Part shown: one piece after another, positions 6,243 to 19,630 of the stretch | Layout: each line of letters begins with the position of its first letter | Numbering within the stretch: the stretch's first letter is position 1 | NCBI RefSeq assembly: GCF_003334315.1 | Contig: NZ_QOWR01000069.1 | Length of the DNA: 20,033 bases | From: Escherichia coli | GTDB lineage: Bacteria; Pseudomonadota; Gammaproteobacteria; Enterobacterales; Enterobacteriaceae | Strand: one strand, 5' to 3' | The notes under the pieces: generated by a model | Seen by the model: only the letters and a program-made list of their open reading frames with translations | What the model was told of the DNA's origin: nothing | Databases searched by the model: none | Translations under genes and position numbers: made by a program

Positions 6243-9029
6243 ATGGTTCAGATCCCCCAAAATCCACTTATCCTTGTAGATGGTTCATCTTATCTTTATC
6301 GCGCATATCACGCGTTTCCCCCGCTGACTAACAGCGCAGGCGAGCCGACCGGTGCGATGTATGGTGTCCTCAACATGCTGCGCAGTCTGATCATGCAATA
6401 TAAACCGACGCATGCAGCGGTGGTCTTTGACGCCAAGGGAAAAACCTTTCGTGATGAACTGTTTGAACATTACAAATCACATCGCCCGCCAATGCCGGAC
6501 GATCTGCGTGCACAAATCGAACCCTTGCACGCGATGGTTAAAGCGATGGGACTGCCGCTGCTGGCGGTTTCTGGCGTAGAAGCGGACGACGTTATCGGTA
6601 CTCTGGCGCGCGAAGCCGAAAAAGCCGGGCGTCCGGTGCTGATCAGCACTGGCGATAAAGATATGGCGCAGCTGGTGACGCCAAATATTACGCTTATCAA
6701 TACCATGACGAATACCATCCTCGGACCGGAAGAGGTGGTGAATAAGTACGGCGTGCCGCCAGAACTGATCATCGATTTCCTGGCGCTGATGGGTGACTCC
6801 TCTGATAACATTCCTGGCGTACCGGGCGTCGGTGAAAAAACCGCGCAGGCATTGCTGCAAGGTCTTGGCGGACTGGATACGCTGTATGCCGAGCCAGAAA
6901 AAATTGCTGGGTTGAGCTTCCGTGGCGCGAAAACAATGGCAGCGAAGCTCGAGCAAAACAAAGAAGTTGCTTATCTCTCATACCAGCTGGCGACGATTAA
7001 AACCGACGTTGAACTGGAGCTGACCTGTGAACAACTGGAAGTGCAGCAACCGGCAGCGGAAGAGTTGTTGGGGCTGTTCAAAAAGTATGAGTTCAAACGC
7101 TGGACTGCTGATGTCGAAGCGGGCAAATGGTTACAGGCCAAAGGGGCAAAACCAGCCGCGAAGCCACAGGAAACCAGTGTTGCAGACGAAGCACCAGAAG
7201 TGACGGCAACGGTGATTTCTTATGACAACTACGTCACCATCCTTGATGAAGAAACACTGAAAGCGTGGATTGCGAAGCTGGAAAAAGCGCCGGTATTTGC
7301 ATTTGATACCGAAACCGACAGCCTTGATAACATCTCTGCTAACCTGGTCGGGCTTTCTTTTGCTATCGAGCCAGGCGTAGCGGCATATATTCCGGTTGCT
7401 CATGATTATCTTGATGCGCCCGATCAAATCTCTCGCGAGCGTGCACTCGAGTTGCTAAAACCGCTGCTGGAAGATGAAAAGGCGCTGAAGGTCGGGCAAA
7501 ACCTGAAATACGATCGCGGTATTCTGGCGAACTACGGCATTGAACTGCGTGGGATTGCGTTTGATACCATGCTGGAGTCCTACATTCTCAATAGCGTTGC
7601 CGGGCGTCACGATATGGACAGCCTCGCGGAACGTTGGTTGAAGCACAAAACCATCACTTTTGAAGAGATTGCTGGTAAAGGCAAAAATCAACTGACCTTT
7701 AACCAGATTGCCCTCGAAGAAGCCGGACGTTACGCCGCCGAAGATGCAGATGTCACCTTGCAGTTGCATCTGAAAATGTGGCCGGATCTGCAAAAACACA
7801 AAGGGCCGTTGAACGTCTTCGAGAATATCGAAATGCCGCTGGTGCCGGTGCTTTCACGCATTGAACGTAACGGTGTGAAGATCGATCCGAAAGTGCTGCA
7901 CAATCATTCTGAAGAGCTCACCCTTCGTCTGGCTGAGCTGGAAAAGAAAGCGCATGAAATTGCAGGTGAGGAATTTAACCTTTCTTCCACCAAGCAGTTA
8001 CAAACCATTCTCTTTGAAAAACAGGGCATTAAACCGCTGAAGAAAACGCCGGGTGGCGCGCCGTCAACGTCGGAAGAGGTACTGGAAGAACTGGCGCTGG
8101 ACTATCCGTTGCCAAAAGTGATTCTGGAGTATCGTGGTCTGGCGAAGCTGAAATCGACCTACACCGACAAGCTGCCGCTGATGATCAACCCGAAAACCGG
8201 GCGTGTGCATACCTCTTATCACCAGGCAGTAACTGCAACGGGACGTTTATCGTCAACCGATCCTAACCTGCAAAACATTCCGGTGCGTAACGAAGAAGGT
8301 CGTCGTATCCGCCAGGCGTTTATTGCGCCAGAGGATTATGTGATTGTCTCAGCGGACTACTCGCAGATTGAACTGCGCATTATGGCGCATCTTTCGCGTG
8401 ACAAAGGCTTGCTGACCGCATTCGCGGAAGGAAAAGATATCCACCGGGCAACGGCGGCAGAAGTGTTTGGTTTGCCACTGGAAACCGTCACCAGCGAGCA
8501 ACGCCGTAGCGCGAAAGCGATCAACTTTGGTCTGATTTATGGCATGAGTGCTTTCGGTCTGGCGCGGCAATTGAACATTCCACGTAAAGAAGCGCAGAAG
8601 TACATGGACCTTTACTTCGAACGCTACCCTGGCGTGCTGGAGTATATGGAACGCACCCGTGCTCAGGCGAAAGAGCAGGGCTACGTTGAAACGCTGGACG
8701 GACGCCGTCTGTATCTGCCGGATATCAAATCCAGCAATGGTGCTCGTCGTGCAGCGGCTGAACGTGCAGCCATTAATGCGCCAATGCAGGGAACCGCCGC
8801 CGACATTATCAAACGGGCGATGATTGCCGTTGATGCGTGGTTACAGGCTGAGCAACCGCGTGTACGTATGATCATGCAGGTACACGATGAACTGGTATTT
8901 GAAGTTCATAAAGATGATGTTGATGCCGTCGCGAAGCAGATTCATCAACTGATGGAAAACTGTACCCGTCTGGATGTGCCGTTGCTGGTGGAAGTGGGGA
9001 GTGGCGAAAACTGGGATCAGGCGCACTAA
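6243..9029 (+). CDS. polA: DNA polymerase I
   Basis: 928 aa; N-terminal 5'-3' exonuclease region and family-A polymerase motifs DYSQIELR (motif A), [14 protein letters not shown] (motif B), QVHDEL (motif C). Confidence 0.98.
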
Positions 9030-9176
9030 GATTCGCCTGAACATGCCCTTTTTTCGTAAGTAAGCAACATAAGCTGTCACGTTTTGTGATGGCTATTAGA
9101 AATTCCTATGCAACAACTGAAAAAAAATTACAAAAAGTGCTTTCTGAACTGAACAAAAAAGAGTAAAGTTAGTCGC

Positions 9177-9285
9177 GTAGGGTACAGAGGTAAGATGTTC
9201 TATCTTTCAGACCTTTTACTTCACGTAATCGGATTTGGCTGAATATTTTAGCCGCCCCAGTCAGTAATGACTGGGGCGTTTTTTA
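9177..9285 (+). ncRNA. spf: Spot 42 small regulatory RNA
   Basis: Sequence gtagggtacagaggtaagatgttctatctttcagacc... ending in the terminator hairpin ccccagtcagtaatgactgggg plus T-run, recognised as Spot 42; -10-like taaagt at 9164-9169. Confidence 0.9.
9195..9242 (+). CDS. spfP: 15-aa small protein encoded within Spot 42 (SpfP-like), MFYLSDLLLHVIGFG
   Basis: ATG at 9195 preceded by AGAGG; 15 sense codons then TGA, translated by hand. A dual-function Spot 42 peptide has been reported. Confidence 0.5.
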   Translation: MFYLSDLLLHVIGFG

Positions 9286-9310
9286 TTGGGCGAAAGAAAA
9301 GATCCGTAAT

Positions 9311-9389
9311 GCCTGATGCGCTATGTTTATCAGGCCAACGGTAGAATTGTAATCTATTGAATTTACGGGCCGGATACGCCACATCCGGC
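9311..9389. repeat. REP-type palindromic units between spf and the 3' end of engB
   Basis: Two imperfect palindromes: gcctgatgcg...ttatcaggcc (9311-9336) and gccggatacgccacatccggc (9369-9389). Confidence 0.6.
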
Positions 9390-9410
9390 ACAAGCATTAA
9401 GGCAAGAAAA

Positions 9411-10043
9411 TTATTCGCCGTCCTGCGTTTCTTCTACAGGCTGCATCTCGCTAAACCAGGTATCCAGTTTCTGCCGCAGCTTGTCCACGCCTTGTTTCTT
9501 CAACGAAGAAAACGTTTCAACCTGCACATCACCGTTAAACGCCAGTACAGCTTCACGCACCATATTCAATTGCGCTTTACGTGCGCCGCTTGCCAGTTTG
9601 TCCGCTTTGGTCAGCAGCACCAGAACGGCGATATTGCTGTCTACCGCCCACTCAATCATCTGCTGATCCAAATCTTTCAGCGGATGGCGAATATCCATTA
9701 GCACCACCAGACCTTGCAGGCTCTGACGTTTTTCGAGGTATTCGCCGAGCGCACGCTGCCATTTGCGCTTCATCTCTTCCGGGACTTCCGCATAACCGTA
9801 CCCAGGCAAGTCAACCAGACGCTTGCCGTCAGCCACTTCAAACAGGTTGATAAGCTGGGTGCGCCCTGGGGTTTTTGAGGTACGAGCCAGGCTTTTCTGG
9901 TTAGTCAGCGTGTTCAGCGCGCTGGATTTACCTGCGTTGGAACGGCCTGCAAAAGCCACTTCAATTCCGGTATCGGAAGGTAGGTGGCGAATATCAGGCG
10001 CACTCATCACAAAATGCGTCTGTTGATAATTCAAATTAGTCAA
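9411..10043 (-). CDS. engB: Ribosome-biogenesis GTPase EngB (YihA)
   Basis: 210 aa with G1 motif GRSNAGKSS and DLPGYG G3 region. Confidence 0.95.
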
Positions 10044-10313: not shown

Positions 10314-10556
10314 ATAGAGCGAGGACGCTAACAGGAACAATGACTCAGGATGAGGGTCAGGAGCGCCAGGAGGCGAAGACAGAGGATTGTCAGGAAGACA
10401 AACGTCCGGAGACGTAATTAAACGGAAATGGAATCAACACGGATTGTTCTGGCTAATGGAAAAACAGGGTGTGTTGGCGGCCTGCAAGGATTGTAAGACC
10501 CGTTAAGGGTTATGAGTCAGGAAAAAAGGCGACAGATTACTCTGTCGCCTTTTTTC
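10314..10556 (+). ncRNA. csrC: CsrC, CsrA-sequestering sRNA
   Basis: About 243 nt with 14 GGA triplets, mostly as AGGA/CAGGA, far above chance; -10-like taaagt at 10301-10306; ends in terminator aaaaaaggcgacag...ctgtcgcctttttt; sits between engB and yihI. 5' end approximate. Confidence 0.85.
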
Positions 10557-10624
10557 TTTGCTTGCTTTCTGTTAGATTCCGCCGCAAATCTATACTGAAT
10601 AAAACGGCTAAAAGACGAACCATT

Positions 10625-17350: not shown

Positions 17351-17439
17351 CGCACCATCGTGCAAAAGGGCTGCACCACGATGTGAATGTTGCACCAATA
17401 TAGTGCTTCAATGGAAACATTAAGCACCATGTTGGTGCA
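17351..17439 (-). promoter_or_regulatory. Cluster of NtrC enhancer binding sites upstream of glnAp2
   Basis: Repeated TGCACC/GGTGCA half-sites: tgcaccaatatagtgct (17391-17407), agcaccatgttggtgca (17423-17439), weaker copies at 17351-17388. Confidence 0.65.
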
Positions 17440-17590
17440 ATGACCTTTGGATAACCCTTTTTATGCTCCGTGAAAGCGATCACAAAGGGACTCTGCAATA
17501 CTTGTTTGCGGAGGATGTTTGTGATCCTGTTTTGTAGTGCGATTAATCCGTGTACAATAACGCGCTATTTCTAATGCCTGAGGCAAAGTT

Positions 17591-19414
17591 GTGATCGAAA
17601 AATTGCGTAATATCGCCATCATCGCGCACGTAGACCATGGTAAAACCACCCTGGTAGACAAGCTGCTCCAACAATCCGGTACGTTCGACTCTCGTGCCGA
17701 AACCCAAGAGCGCGTGATGGACTCCAACGATTTGGAGAAAGAGCGTGGGATTACCATCCTCGCGAAAAACACCGCTATCAAATGGAATGATTACCGTATC
17801 AACATCGTTGATACCCCGGGGCACGCCGACTTCGGTGGTGAAGTTGAACGTGTAATGTCCATGGTAGACTCAGTGCTGCTGGTGGTTGACGCATTTGACG
17901 GCCCGATGCCGCAAACGCGCTTCGTAACCAAAAAAGCGTTTGCTTACGGCCTGAAGCCGATTGTTGTTATCAACAAAGTTGACCGCCCTGGCGCGCGTCC
18001 TGATTGGGTTGTGGATCAGGTATTCGATCTGTTCGTTAACCTCGACGCGACCGACGAGCAGCTGGACTTCCCGATCGTTTACGCTTCTGCGCTGAACGGT
18101 ATCGCGGGTCTGGACCACGAAGATATGGCGGAAGACATGACCCCGCTGTATCAGGCGATTGTTGATCACGTTCCTGCGCCGGACGTTGACCTTGACGGTC
18201 CGTTCCAGATGCAGATTTCTCAGCTCGATTACAACAGCTATGTTGGCGTTATCGGCATTGGCCGCATCAAGCGCGGTAAAGTGAAGCCGAACCAACAGGT
18301 CACTATCATCGATAGCGAAGGCAAAACCCGCAACGCGAAAGTCGGTAAAGTGCTGGGCCACCTCGGTCTGGAACGTATCGAAACCGATCTGGCGGAAGCT
18401 GGCGATATCGTGGCGATCACGGGCCTTGGCGAACTGAACATTTCTGACACCGTTTGCGACACGCAAAACGTTGAAGCGCTGCCGGCACTCTCCGTTGATG
18501 AGCCGACCGTTTCTATGTTCTTCTGCGTTAACACCTCGCCGTTCTGCGGTAAAGAAGGTAAGTTCGTAACGTCTCGTCAGATCCTGGATCGTCTGAACAA
18601 AGAACTGGTACACAACGTTGCGCTGCGCGTAGAAGAAACCGAAGACGCCGATGCGTTCCGCGTTTCTGGTCGTGGCGAACTGCACCTGTCTGTTCTGATC
18701 GAAAACATGCGTCGTGAAGGTTTCGAACTGGCGGTATCCCGTCCGAAAGTTATCTTCCGTGAAATCGACGGTCGTAAACAAGAGCCGTATGAAAACGTGA
18801 CGCTGGACGTTGAAGAACAGCATCAGGGTTCTGTAATGCAGGCGCTGGGCGAACGTAAAGGCGACCTGAAAAACATGAATCCAGACGGTAAAGGCCGCGT
18901 ACGTCTCGACTACGTGATCCCAAGCCGTGGTCTGATTGGCTTCCGTTCTGAGTTCATGACCATGACTTCCGGTACTGGTCTGCTGTACTCCACCTTCAGC
19001 CACTACGACGACGTACGTCCGGGTGAAGTGGGTCAGCGTCAGAACGGCGTACTGATCTCTAACGGTCAGGGTAAAGCGGTCGCGTTCGCGCTGTTCGGTC
19101 TGCAGGATCGCGGTAAGCTGTTCCTCGGTCACGGTGCAGAAGTTTACGAAGGTCAGATTATCGGTATTCATAGCCGCTCTAACGACCTGACTGTAAACTG
19201 CCTGACCGGTAAGAAACTGACCAACATGCGTGCTTCCGGTACTGACGAAGCCGTTGTTCTGGTTCCGCCTATCCGCATGACTCTGGAACAAGCTCTGGAG
19301 TTCATCGATGATGACGAACTGGTAGAAGTGACCCCGACCTCTATCCGTATTCGTAAACGTCACCTGACGGAAAACGATCGTCGTCGCGCCAACCGCGCAC
19401 CGAAAGACGATTAA
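17591..19414 (+). CDS. typA: Ribosome-associated translational GTPase BipA/TypA
   Basis: 607 aa, GTG start with GAGG SD; G-domain motifs [18 protein letters not shown]; EF-G-like domain architecture. Confidence 0.97.
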
Positions 19415-19431
19415 TTTCGTTTTTTAGTCAT

Positions 19432-19464
19432 AAAAAACCTGCCAGCGATGGCAGGTTTTTTTTT
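19432..19464 (+). terminator. Rho-independent terminator of typA
   Basis: A-run, stem cctgcca / tggcagg with 4-nt loop, then nine T. Confidence 0.85.
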
Positions 19465-19630
19465 GCCTGTCGTGAGCACTCAGCAATGCGAGTATCTCCC
19501 TTATAAGTCTGTGGTTACGTCAATAGAGAGCTTTGTCACAATTATCTGCAAAGTCATACGCCGTTAATTGCTTTCTTTTTTGGCGTAAGCGTAAGATGCC
19601 TCATCTGGTTTAAACCAAAAGGATTAAACA

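Follow-up and report, generated by a model that had tools for sequence, protein, structure and literature searches.

The Spot 42 gene (spf) of Escherichia coli raises the question of whether its transcript acts only as a base-pairing small RNA (sRNA), or whether the 15-codon open reading frame (ORF) inside it also makes a functional product. As summarised in PMC8916003, Rice et al. (1987) found ribosome binding to this RNA to be non-productive and an ORF-lacZ fusion to be without activity, and concluded that "Spot 42 RNA is not an mRNA". A PNAS paper of 2022 by Aoyama, Raina, Zhong and Storz (PMC8916003) described in the same RNA a Shine-Dalgarno sequence (SD), an AUG, a 15-codon ORF and a UGA; the ORF, whose product is SpfP, had been flagged earlier by start-codon-trapping ribosome profiling. 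Later reviews repeat this picture of SpfP. Neither PMC8916003 nor these reviews contain an analysis of the phylogenetic conservation of the ORF, and the main text of PMC8916003 uses neither "conserved" nor "conservation".

Identity and genomic context of the spf locus

An Rfam scan of the window (the whole stretch of 20,033 nt of E. coli DNA that was analysed) matched RF00021 (Spot_42) at 9167–9285 on the plus strand with 122.8 bits, above the gathering threshold of 80 bits, an E-value of 1.1e-24 and alignment to positions 1–115 of the 115-position model. The spf gene itself, specifying the 109-nt Spot 42 sRNA, occupies 9177–9285 (+), with direct reading of 8900–9500 placing the first base of GTAGGGTACAGAGG at G9177 and the end of the terminator U-tract at A9285. 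In the RefSeq record of K-12 MG1655, spf (b3864, 4049899–4050009) is annotated as 111 nt, reaching 9287 in window terms, and this sequence is found exactly at 9177–9287, while K-12 spfP (b4837, "dual-function small protein SpfP", 4049917–4049964) is found exactly at 9195–9242. Alignment to the K-12 spf locus, the check proposed in the initial annotation, showed 9048–9300 to be base-for-base identical, from the CRP site through the terminator and including the ORF, and neither the CRP site, promoter, sRNA, ORF nor terminator differs between the two. Over 1.8 kb, identity between the two is 99.67% (BLAST). The sole difference from K-12 within 9020–9300 is one extra C in a C-run near 9046 (ATGCCCTTTTTT in the window, ATGCCTTTTTT in K-12 MG1655), just downstream of the polA stop and upstream of the CRP site.

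The gene is flanked by polA (6243–9029, +) and yihA/engB (9411–10043, −) and lies on the polA strand, an arrangement also found in K-12, and the gene order polA-spf-yihA-csrC is common to the window and K-12. Of 5426 complete E. coli genomes, 5425 have the 381-nt intergenic region, many with 100% identity, and in all 5425 the 109-nt RNA reaches an identity of at least 99%. The RF00021 score, the position between polA and yihA and a fold of three hairpins with an intrinsic terminator all agree with the initial annotation of a Spot 42 sRNA at 9177–9285. The element is an ordinary E. coli spf/spfP gene with a known CRP site, and the observation was already known, because it was published in 2022 and is annotated in RefSeq.

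Other Rfam matches in the window are CsrC (10314–10567, 276.9 bits), as expected for a polA-spf-yihA-csrC region, the ES222 sRNA (17402–17509, 135.3 bits) and STnc370 (19399–19467, 55.6 bits), the last barely over its threshold of 54. Two REP-like palindromes with 7-bp arms can be seen by eye between spf and yihA (9311–9335, GCCTGAT...ATCAGGC; 9369–9389, GCCGGAT...ATCCGGC); an inverted-repeat search downstream of spf with a minimum length of 8 found no REP elements.

The CRP site and the spf promoter

A TGTGA motif at 9085–9089 had been noted as compatible with cAMP-CRP control, and it proves to be the left half-site of the spf CRP site. Hansen et al. (2012; PMC3295665) quote this site, from Polayes et al. 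(1988), as 5'-TTTTGTGATGGCTATTAGAAAT-3', and the sequence stands unchanged at 9082–9103, with its centre at −84.5 from +1. The 16-bp core, TGTGA-N6-TTAGA (9085–9100), matches the consensus TGTGA-N6-TCACA at 8 of 10 positions; a core score of at least 8 is reached at only 7 of 20,017 window positions, and within 9030–9200 this core is the sole site scoring at least 7. Across the Enterobacteriaceae, TTTTGTGA is kept at −84.5. In the upstream alignment, Erwinia, Pantoea, Mixta and Tatumella have TGTGA at −83.5 to −84.5 and Budvicia has it at −85.5; Serratia, Hafnia, Edwardsiella, Morganellaceae and most Vibrionaceae have no TGTGA at this place. The mode by which CRP would repress from −84.5 is not obvious from the promoter sequence.

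The probable sigma-70 −10 hexamer is TAAAGT (9164–9169, +), 7 nt upstream of +1 and part of the conserved block GTAnAGTT. The −35 candidate, TTTCTG (9141–9146, +), is weak, with only CTTT conserved, and its assignment is tentative because a consensus sigma-70 scan of 9000–9420 found no promoter at its thresholds. An A/T-rich block, TGAAAAAAAATTACAAAAAG, spans −59 to −40 (9118–9137, +) and is conserved in Enterobacterales, the pattern TGAAA..AAA.TACA.AAA (TGAAAAAAAAnTACAAAAA) being at least 80% conserved across 21 genera of the order; from its position alone, this block may be an UP-element-like part of the promoter. Both the −10 and the UP-like assignments are based on cross-species conservation together with the published +1. 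With its poor −35 and no consensus sigma-70 promoter, the spf promoter looks like the UP-element-dependent type. Escherichia albertii (L009) carries a 10-bp deletion, TTACAAAAAG, inside the conserved −59 to −40 block (equivalent to about 9128–9137), which shifts the CRP site from −84.5 to −74.5, that is, by one helical turn.

The Spot 42 fold and the SpfP reading frame

The minimum free energy (MFE) of the 109-nt RNA is −40.6 kcal/mol (z = −5.1 against 200 shuffles), and with an Rfam E-value of 1e-24 the RNA itself is far beyond chance. Its MFE fold consists of hairpin 1 (nt 1–48; 9177–9224, +), which encloses the SD and AUG, hairpin 2 (nt 61–77; 9237–9253, +), which holds the last codon and stop of spfP, and the terminator (nt 78–101). 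A Rho-independent terminator with an 11-bp G+C-rich stem and a U-tract occupies 9253–9285 (+), a terminator scan matching 9253–9278, which is followed by TTTTTT; ten terminator pairs show compensatory changes across species (RNAalifold, 35 sequences). Terminators of this kind ordinarily provide the 3' Hfq-binding module of an sRNA, and Hfq binding by Spot 42 is taken here from the literature.

The spfP coding sequence (9195–9242, +; nt 19–66 of Spot 42) comprises an ATG at 9195–9197, 14 further sense codons and a TGA at 9240–9242. The initial annotation had claimed an intact 15-codon ORF with an SD, an ATG at 9195 and an in-frame TGA at 9240, and had named a frameshift or internal stop as what would speak against it; on re-reading there is neither, and the translation is MFYLSDLLLHVIGFG*. 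The ORF is that of the published SpfP (WP_071892919.1, b4837), for which translation and CRP binding are reported in PMC8916003, and the earlier reading of the ORF as consistent with a dual-function Spot 42 is supported. In some strain records, RefSeq annotates WP_071892919.1 ("spfP: small protein SpfP") on exactly this ORF. An SD-like GAGG, called an SD in PMC8916003, lies 4 nt upstream of the ATG (9187–9190, +), His10 is encoded by CAC at 9222–9224, and the single GGA within the ORF (9231–9233, +) is a CsrA site on Spot 42 reported by Lai et al. (2022), as cited in PMC8916003.

The initiation signals are paired within hairpin 1, the SD (nt 11–14) with CCUU at nt 36–39 and the AUG (nt 19–21) with UAU of codon 3 (nt 25–27). 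Such sequestration is what Aoyama et al. invoke for the temperature-dependent translation of SpfP. Taken alone, the 15-codon ORF is statistically unremarkable: in dinucleotide-preserving shuffles of the 109 nt, which served as the chance control, a closed ATG-initiated ORF of at least 15 codons occurred in 10%, and one with an SD-like 4-mer upstream as well in 1.6%.

The reading frame in syntenic spf loci

One genome per species was scanned for the exact 18 nt that precede the ATG, GTAGGGTACAGAGGTAAG, a query that does not pre-select for ORF content because it lies before the start codon. The scan gave at least 120 matches, and the matches listed include 118 usable loci in other species. All listed loci with retrieved flanks follow polA on its own strand and face yihA, and this shared place and orientation identifies them as positional orthologues and rules out chance 18-mer matches as the source of the divergent loci among them.

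Absence of the ORF from homologous spf loci had been put forward as evidence that would count against it; among the matches listed it is intact in 89 of 118 (90 of 119 with the E. coli reference), and His10 is present in all 90 intact copies, the reference included. The peptide MFYLSDLLLHVIGFG is shared by Enterobacteriaceae, Erwiniaceae, Pectobacteriaceae, Yersiniaceae and Hafniaceae, and variants end in ...GFS in Morganellaceae, ...LLFHVIGLG in Vibrio, ...LLFHVIGFG in Photobacterium, Salinivibrio and Enterovibrio, and ...LLFHVIECG in Aeromonas. The Vibrio peptide thus carries L9F and F14L, and the Aeromonas peptide L9F, G13E and F14C.

Among the matches listed, the 48 nucleotides of the ORF are invariant across nearly all Enterobacterales, third codon positions included, the sole common change being G61A (G15S) in Morganellaceae, and this invariance means that the order carries no information on selection at the level of the peptide. 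A substitution tally was made over 99 sequences, including the E. coli reference, that are at least 80% identical to E. coli over nt 1–66. The distinct types of ORF substitution observed among these listed matches were 4 synonymous, 1 stop-kept (TGA>TAA), 15 non-synonymous and 7 ORF-destroying, where random single substitutions would be expected to fall 30, 1, 89 and 24 ways, respectively, of 144. No purifying selection on the SpfP peptide is visible in these 99 sequences, synonymous changes being not enriched and disruptive changes not depleted.

The ORF has been lost in at least six lineages, among the matches listed, that keep a Spot 42-grade RNA. A single change, C32>A, which turns codon 5 from TCA into TAA, recurs in Rosenbergiella (2 species; L024, L067), Erwinia endophytica (L095), Vibrio rumoiensis (L076) and Arsenophonus (L088), four genera of different families in which the rest of the sRNA is kept. 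C32 (window position 9208) lies in an unpaired UCAG internal loop, and the recurrence could reflect a mutational hotspot, retuning of the seed or selection against translation. The two Zobellella loci (L065, 10191–10305, −; L086, 2454–2566, +) score 98 bits with Rfam and have no start codon, ATG>GCG being accompanied by TAT>TGT so that pair 19-27 is altered and U20-A26 becomes C20-G26 with hairpin 1 retained; their stop codon is gone as well. The stop codon has also been lost in Vibrio ruber and the V. breoganii clade.

Divergence is greater in 20 syntenic orthologues among the matches listed, which keep only nt 1–33 of Spot 42 and then diverge completely. They belong to Rheinheimera (L011, L014, L042, L057, L061, L096, L117), Alishewanella (L059, L073), Arsukibacterium (L091, L106), Alkalimonas (L027, L069), Budvicia (L037, L118), Bowmanella, Aliiglaciecola, Ferrimonas, one metagenome-assembled genome and Arsenophonus (other loci of this kind: L066, L094, L099, L055). 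Outside Enterobacterales, Vibrionaceae and Aeromonadaceae, only this 33-nt 5' seed is kept among the matches listed, as it is in Budvicia within Enterobacterales. The divergent orthologues resemble E. coli spf in their polA>spf<yihA position, in a nearly identical first ~33 nt with few point changes and, in most, in hairpin 2 and the terminator; they differ in that the middle is replaced by another, lineage-specific hairpin and in that SpfP is absent. Their frames after codon 5 are unrelated to SpfP, with lengths between 4 and more than 37 codons, and four seed-only loci have ATA in place of ATG. An Rfam scan of 18 loci included 15 seed-only ones, 14 of which fall below the gathering threshold, with only Arsenophonus (81 bits) passing.

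These patterns raise the possibility that SpfP coding is not a conserved second function of Spot 42, being instead limited to certain lineages, dispensable, and a by-product of the frozen RNA sequence. This reading draws on the lack of visible peptide-level selection, the at least six independent inactivations with the sRNA kept and the distant orthologues that retain only the seed; we hold it as a tentative, rather doubtful proposition. The recurrence of C32>A might come from selection for silenced translation or for altered pairing of the seed region. If true, a lineage-restricted SpfP would be of moderate interest, and to specialists in dual-function RNAs only.

Constraint on the RNA and the case for SpfP

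A rival explanation takes the ORF to have persisted in evolution only as a by-product of constraint on the RNA, with hairpin 1 and the base-pairing seeds freezing the nucleotides so that GAGG, AUG and an open frame are kept; translation would then be low-level noise that, at native expression, matters little or not at all to the physiology of the cell. We consider this explanation improbable, the K-12 experiments described below speaking against it, and several comparative observations speak for it. In the RNAalifold alignment of 35 diverse sequences, none of the 19 pairs of hairpin 1 is broken, the changes observed being GC>GU at 6-43, UA>UG at 7-42, GU>GC at 21-25, AU>GU at 19-27 and the UA>CG at 20-26 that destroys the AUG in Zobellella. 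The invariance of ORF nucleotides, third positions too, across most Enterobacterales families, the absence of an excess of synonymous or a deficit of disruptive changes, the recurrent codon 5 nonsense mutation in Rosenbergiella, E. endophytica, V. rumoiensis and Arsenophonus, and the distant syntenic orthologues whose peptides are unrelated past codon 5 all fit the same explanation, as does the negative outcome of the 1987 work as relayed in PMC8916003.

Judged from the alignments, the constraint that is visible is on the RNA. Because RNA-level invariance largely explains why the ORF is retained, finding it intact in homologues adds no independent evidence that it is coding, and on this comparative footing its presence there is weaker support than the initial annotation implied. 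One sequence feature points the other way, namely that 3 of the 5 differences between Enterobacterales and Vibrio within the ORF are synonymous third-position changes, a hint of peptide constraint that is weakly suggestive (P about 0.07 by our own estimate).

Whether SpfP counts as a functional product depends on the experiments in K-12, which apply here because the sequence is identical and which argue against translational noise (all PMC8916003). A chromosomal SpfP-SPA fusion was detected, more strongly at 42–45 °C, in addition to the ribosome-profiling signal at the start codon. A recoded SpfP without base-pairing activity still prevented growth on galactose, an effect that a stop codon removed, and a single residue proved critical, H10A inactivating the protein. 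SpfP copurified with CRP as a specific partner and kept CRP from activating gal and mal genes, galE P1 among them, and crp mutations at L51, L62, S84 and S180 relieved its effect. At the native locus, a chromosomal spfSTOP allele led to faster GalK induction at 42 °C. The SpfP phenotypes come mostly from overexpression, with the native-level effect seen mainly at 42 °C.

The remaining alternative, a chance ORF or a mis-called sRNA with no real feature behind it, can draw on the frequency of ORFs of this size in shuffled sequence and is excluded by the Rfam E-value of 1e-24, the exact identity to an annotated K-12 gene and the presence of the locus in 5425 of 5426 E. coli genomes.

A probable dual-function RNA in the CRP regulatory loop

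The best explanation, and in our view a highly probable one, is that the window carries the E. coli spf locus in its K-12-identical form, specifying the dual-function Spot 42/SpfP in a CRP feed-forward loop. Sequence identity, RNA family, structure, synteny, ORF and CRP-site sequence were observed directly in the window. On glucose, low cAMP would leave 9082–9103 unoccupied by CRP and the promoter would make the 109-nt Spot 42, which with Hfq would pair with and repress galK and other mRNAs needed to use non-preferred carbon sources; Hfq-dependent base-pairing with target mRNAs such as galK is known for the identical K-12 RNA (PMC8916003). The same transcript would also serve as a weak mRNA, its SD (9187–9190) and AUG (9195) being sequestered in hairpin 1. 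Opening of hairpin 1, more so at 42–45 °C, would allow ribosomes to make the 15-aa SpfP, which would bind CRP and block CRP-dependent activation at some promoters, such as galE P1, and this action would reinforce the CRP/Spot 42 feed-forward loop. The literature on K-12, where the sequence is identical, supplies the evidence of translation and its temperature dependence, of CRP binding and of CRP repression, and we infer that SpfP and CRP would behave in the same way in the present strain.

Among other dual-function RNAs, SgrS/SgrT of E. coli is similar in combining Hfq-dependent base-pairing with the coding of a small protein that acts in the same sugar pathway (PMC8916003). Unlike Spot 42, the 227-nt SgrS keeps its ORF physically apart from its base-pairing region, and SgrT, unlike SpfP, targets PtsG and not a transcription factor. 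AzuCR/AzuC of E. coli and VcdRP/VcdP of Vibrio cholerae are likewise CRP-repressed dual-function RNAs of carbon metabolism, whereas AzuC and VcdP are longer than SpfP (28 and 29 aa), bind enzymes (GlpD and GltA) instead of CRP and are unrelated in sequence.

Implications

For the window itself the outcome matters little, since a textbook sRNA gene has been correctly recognised again, together with a small protein published in 2022 and annotated in RefSeq. Of modest use to work on dual-function RNAs is the point that an intact ORF in homologues does not amount to independent evidence of coding where the RNA is frozen. The natural ORF-null spf alleles of Rosenbergiella, Erwinia endophytica, Arsenophonus, Vibrio rumoiensis and Zobellella could offer ready-made tests of whether SpfP matters physiologically.
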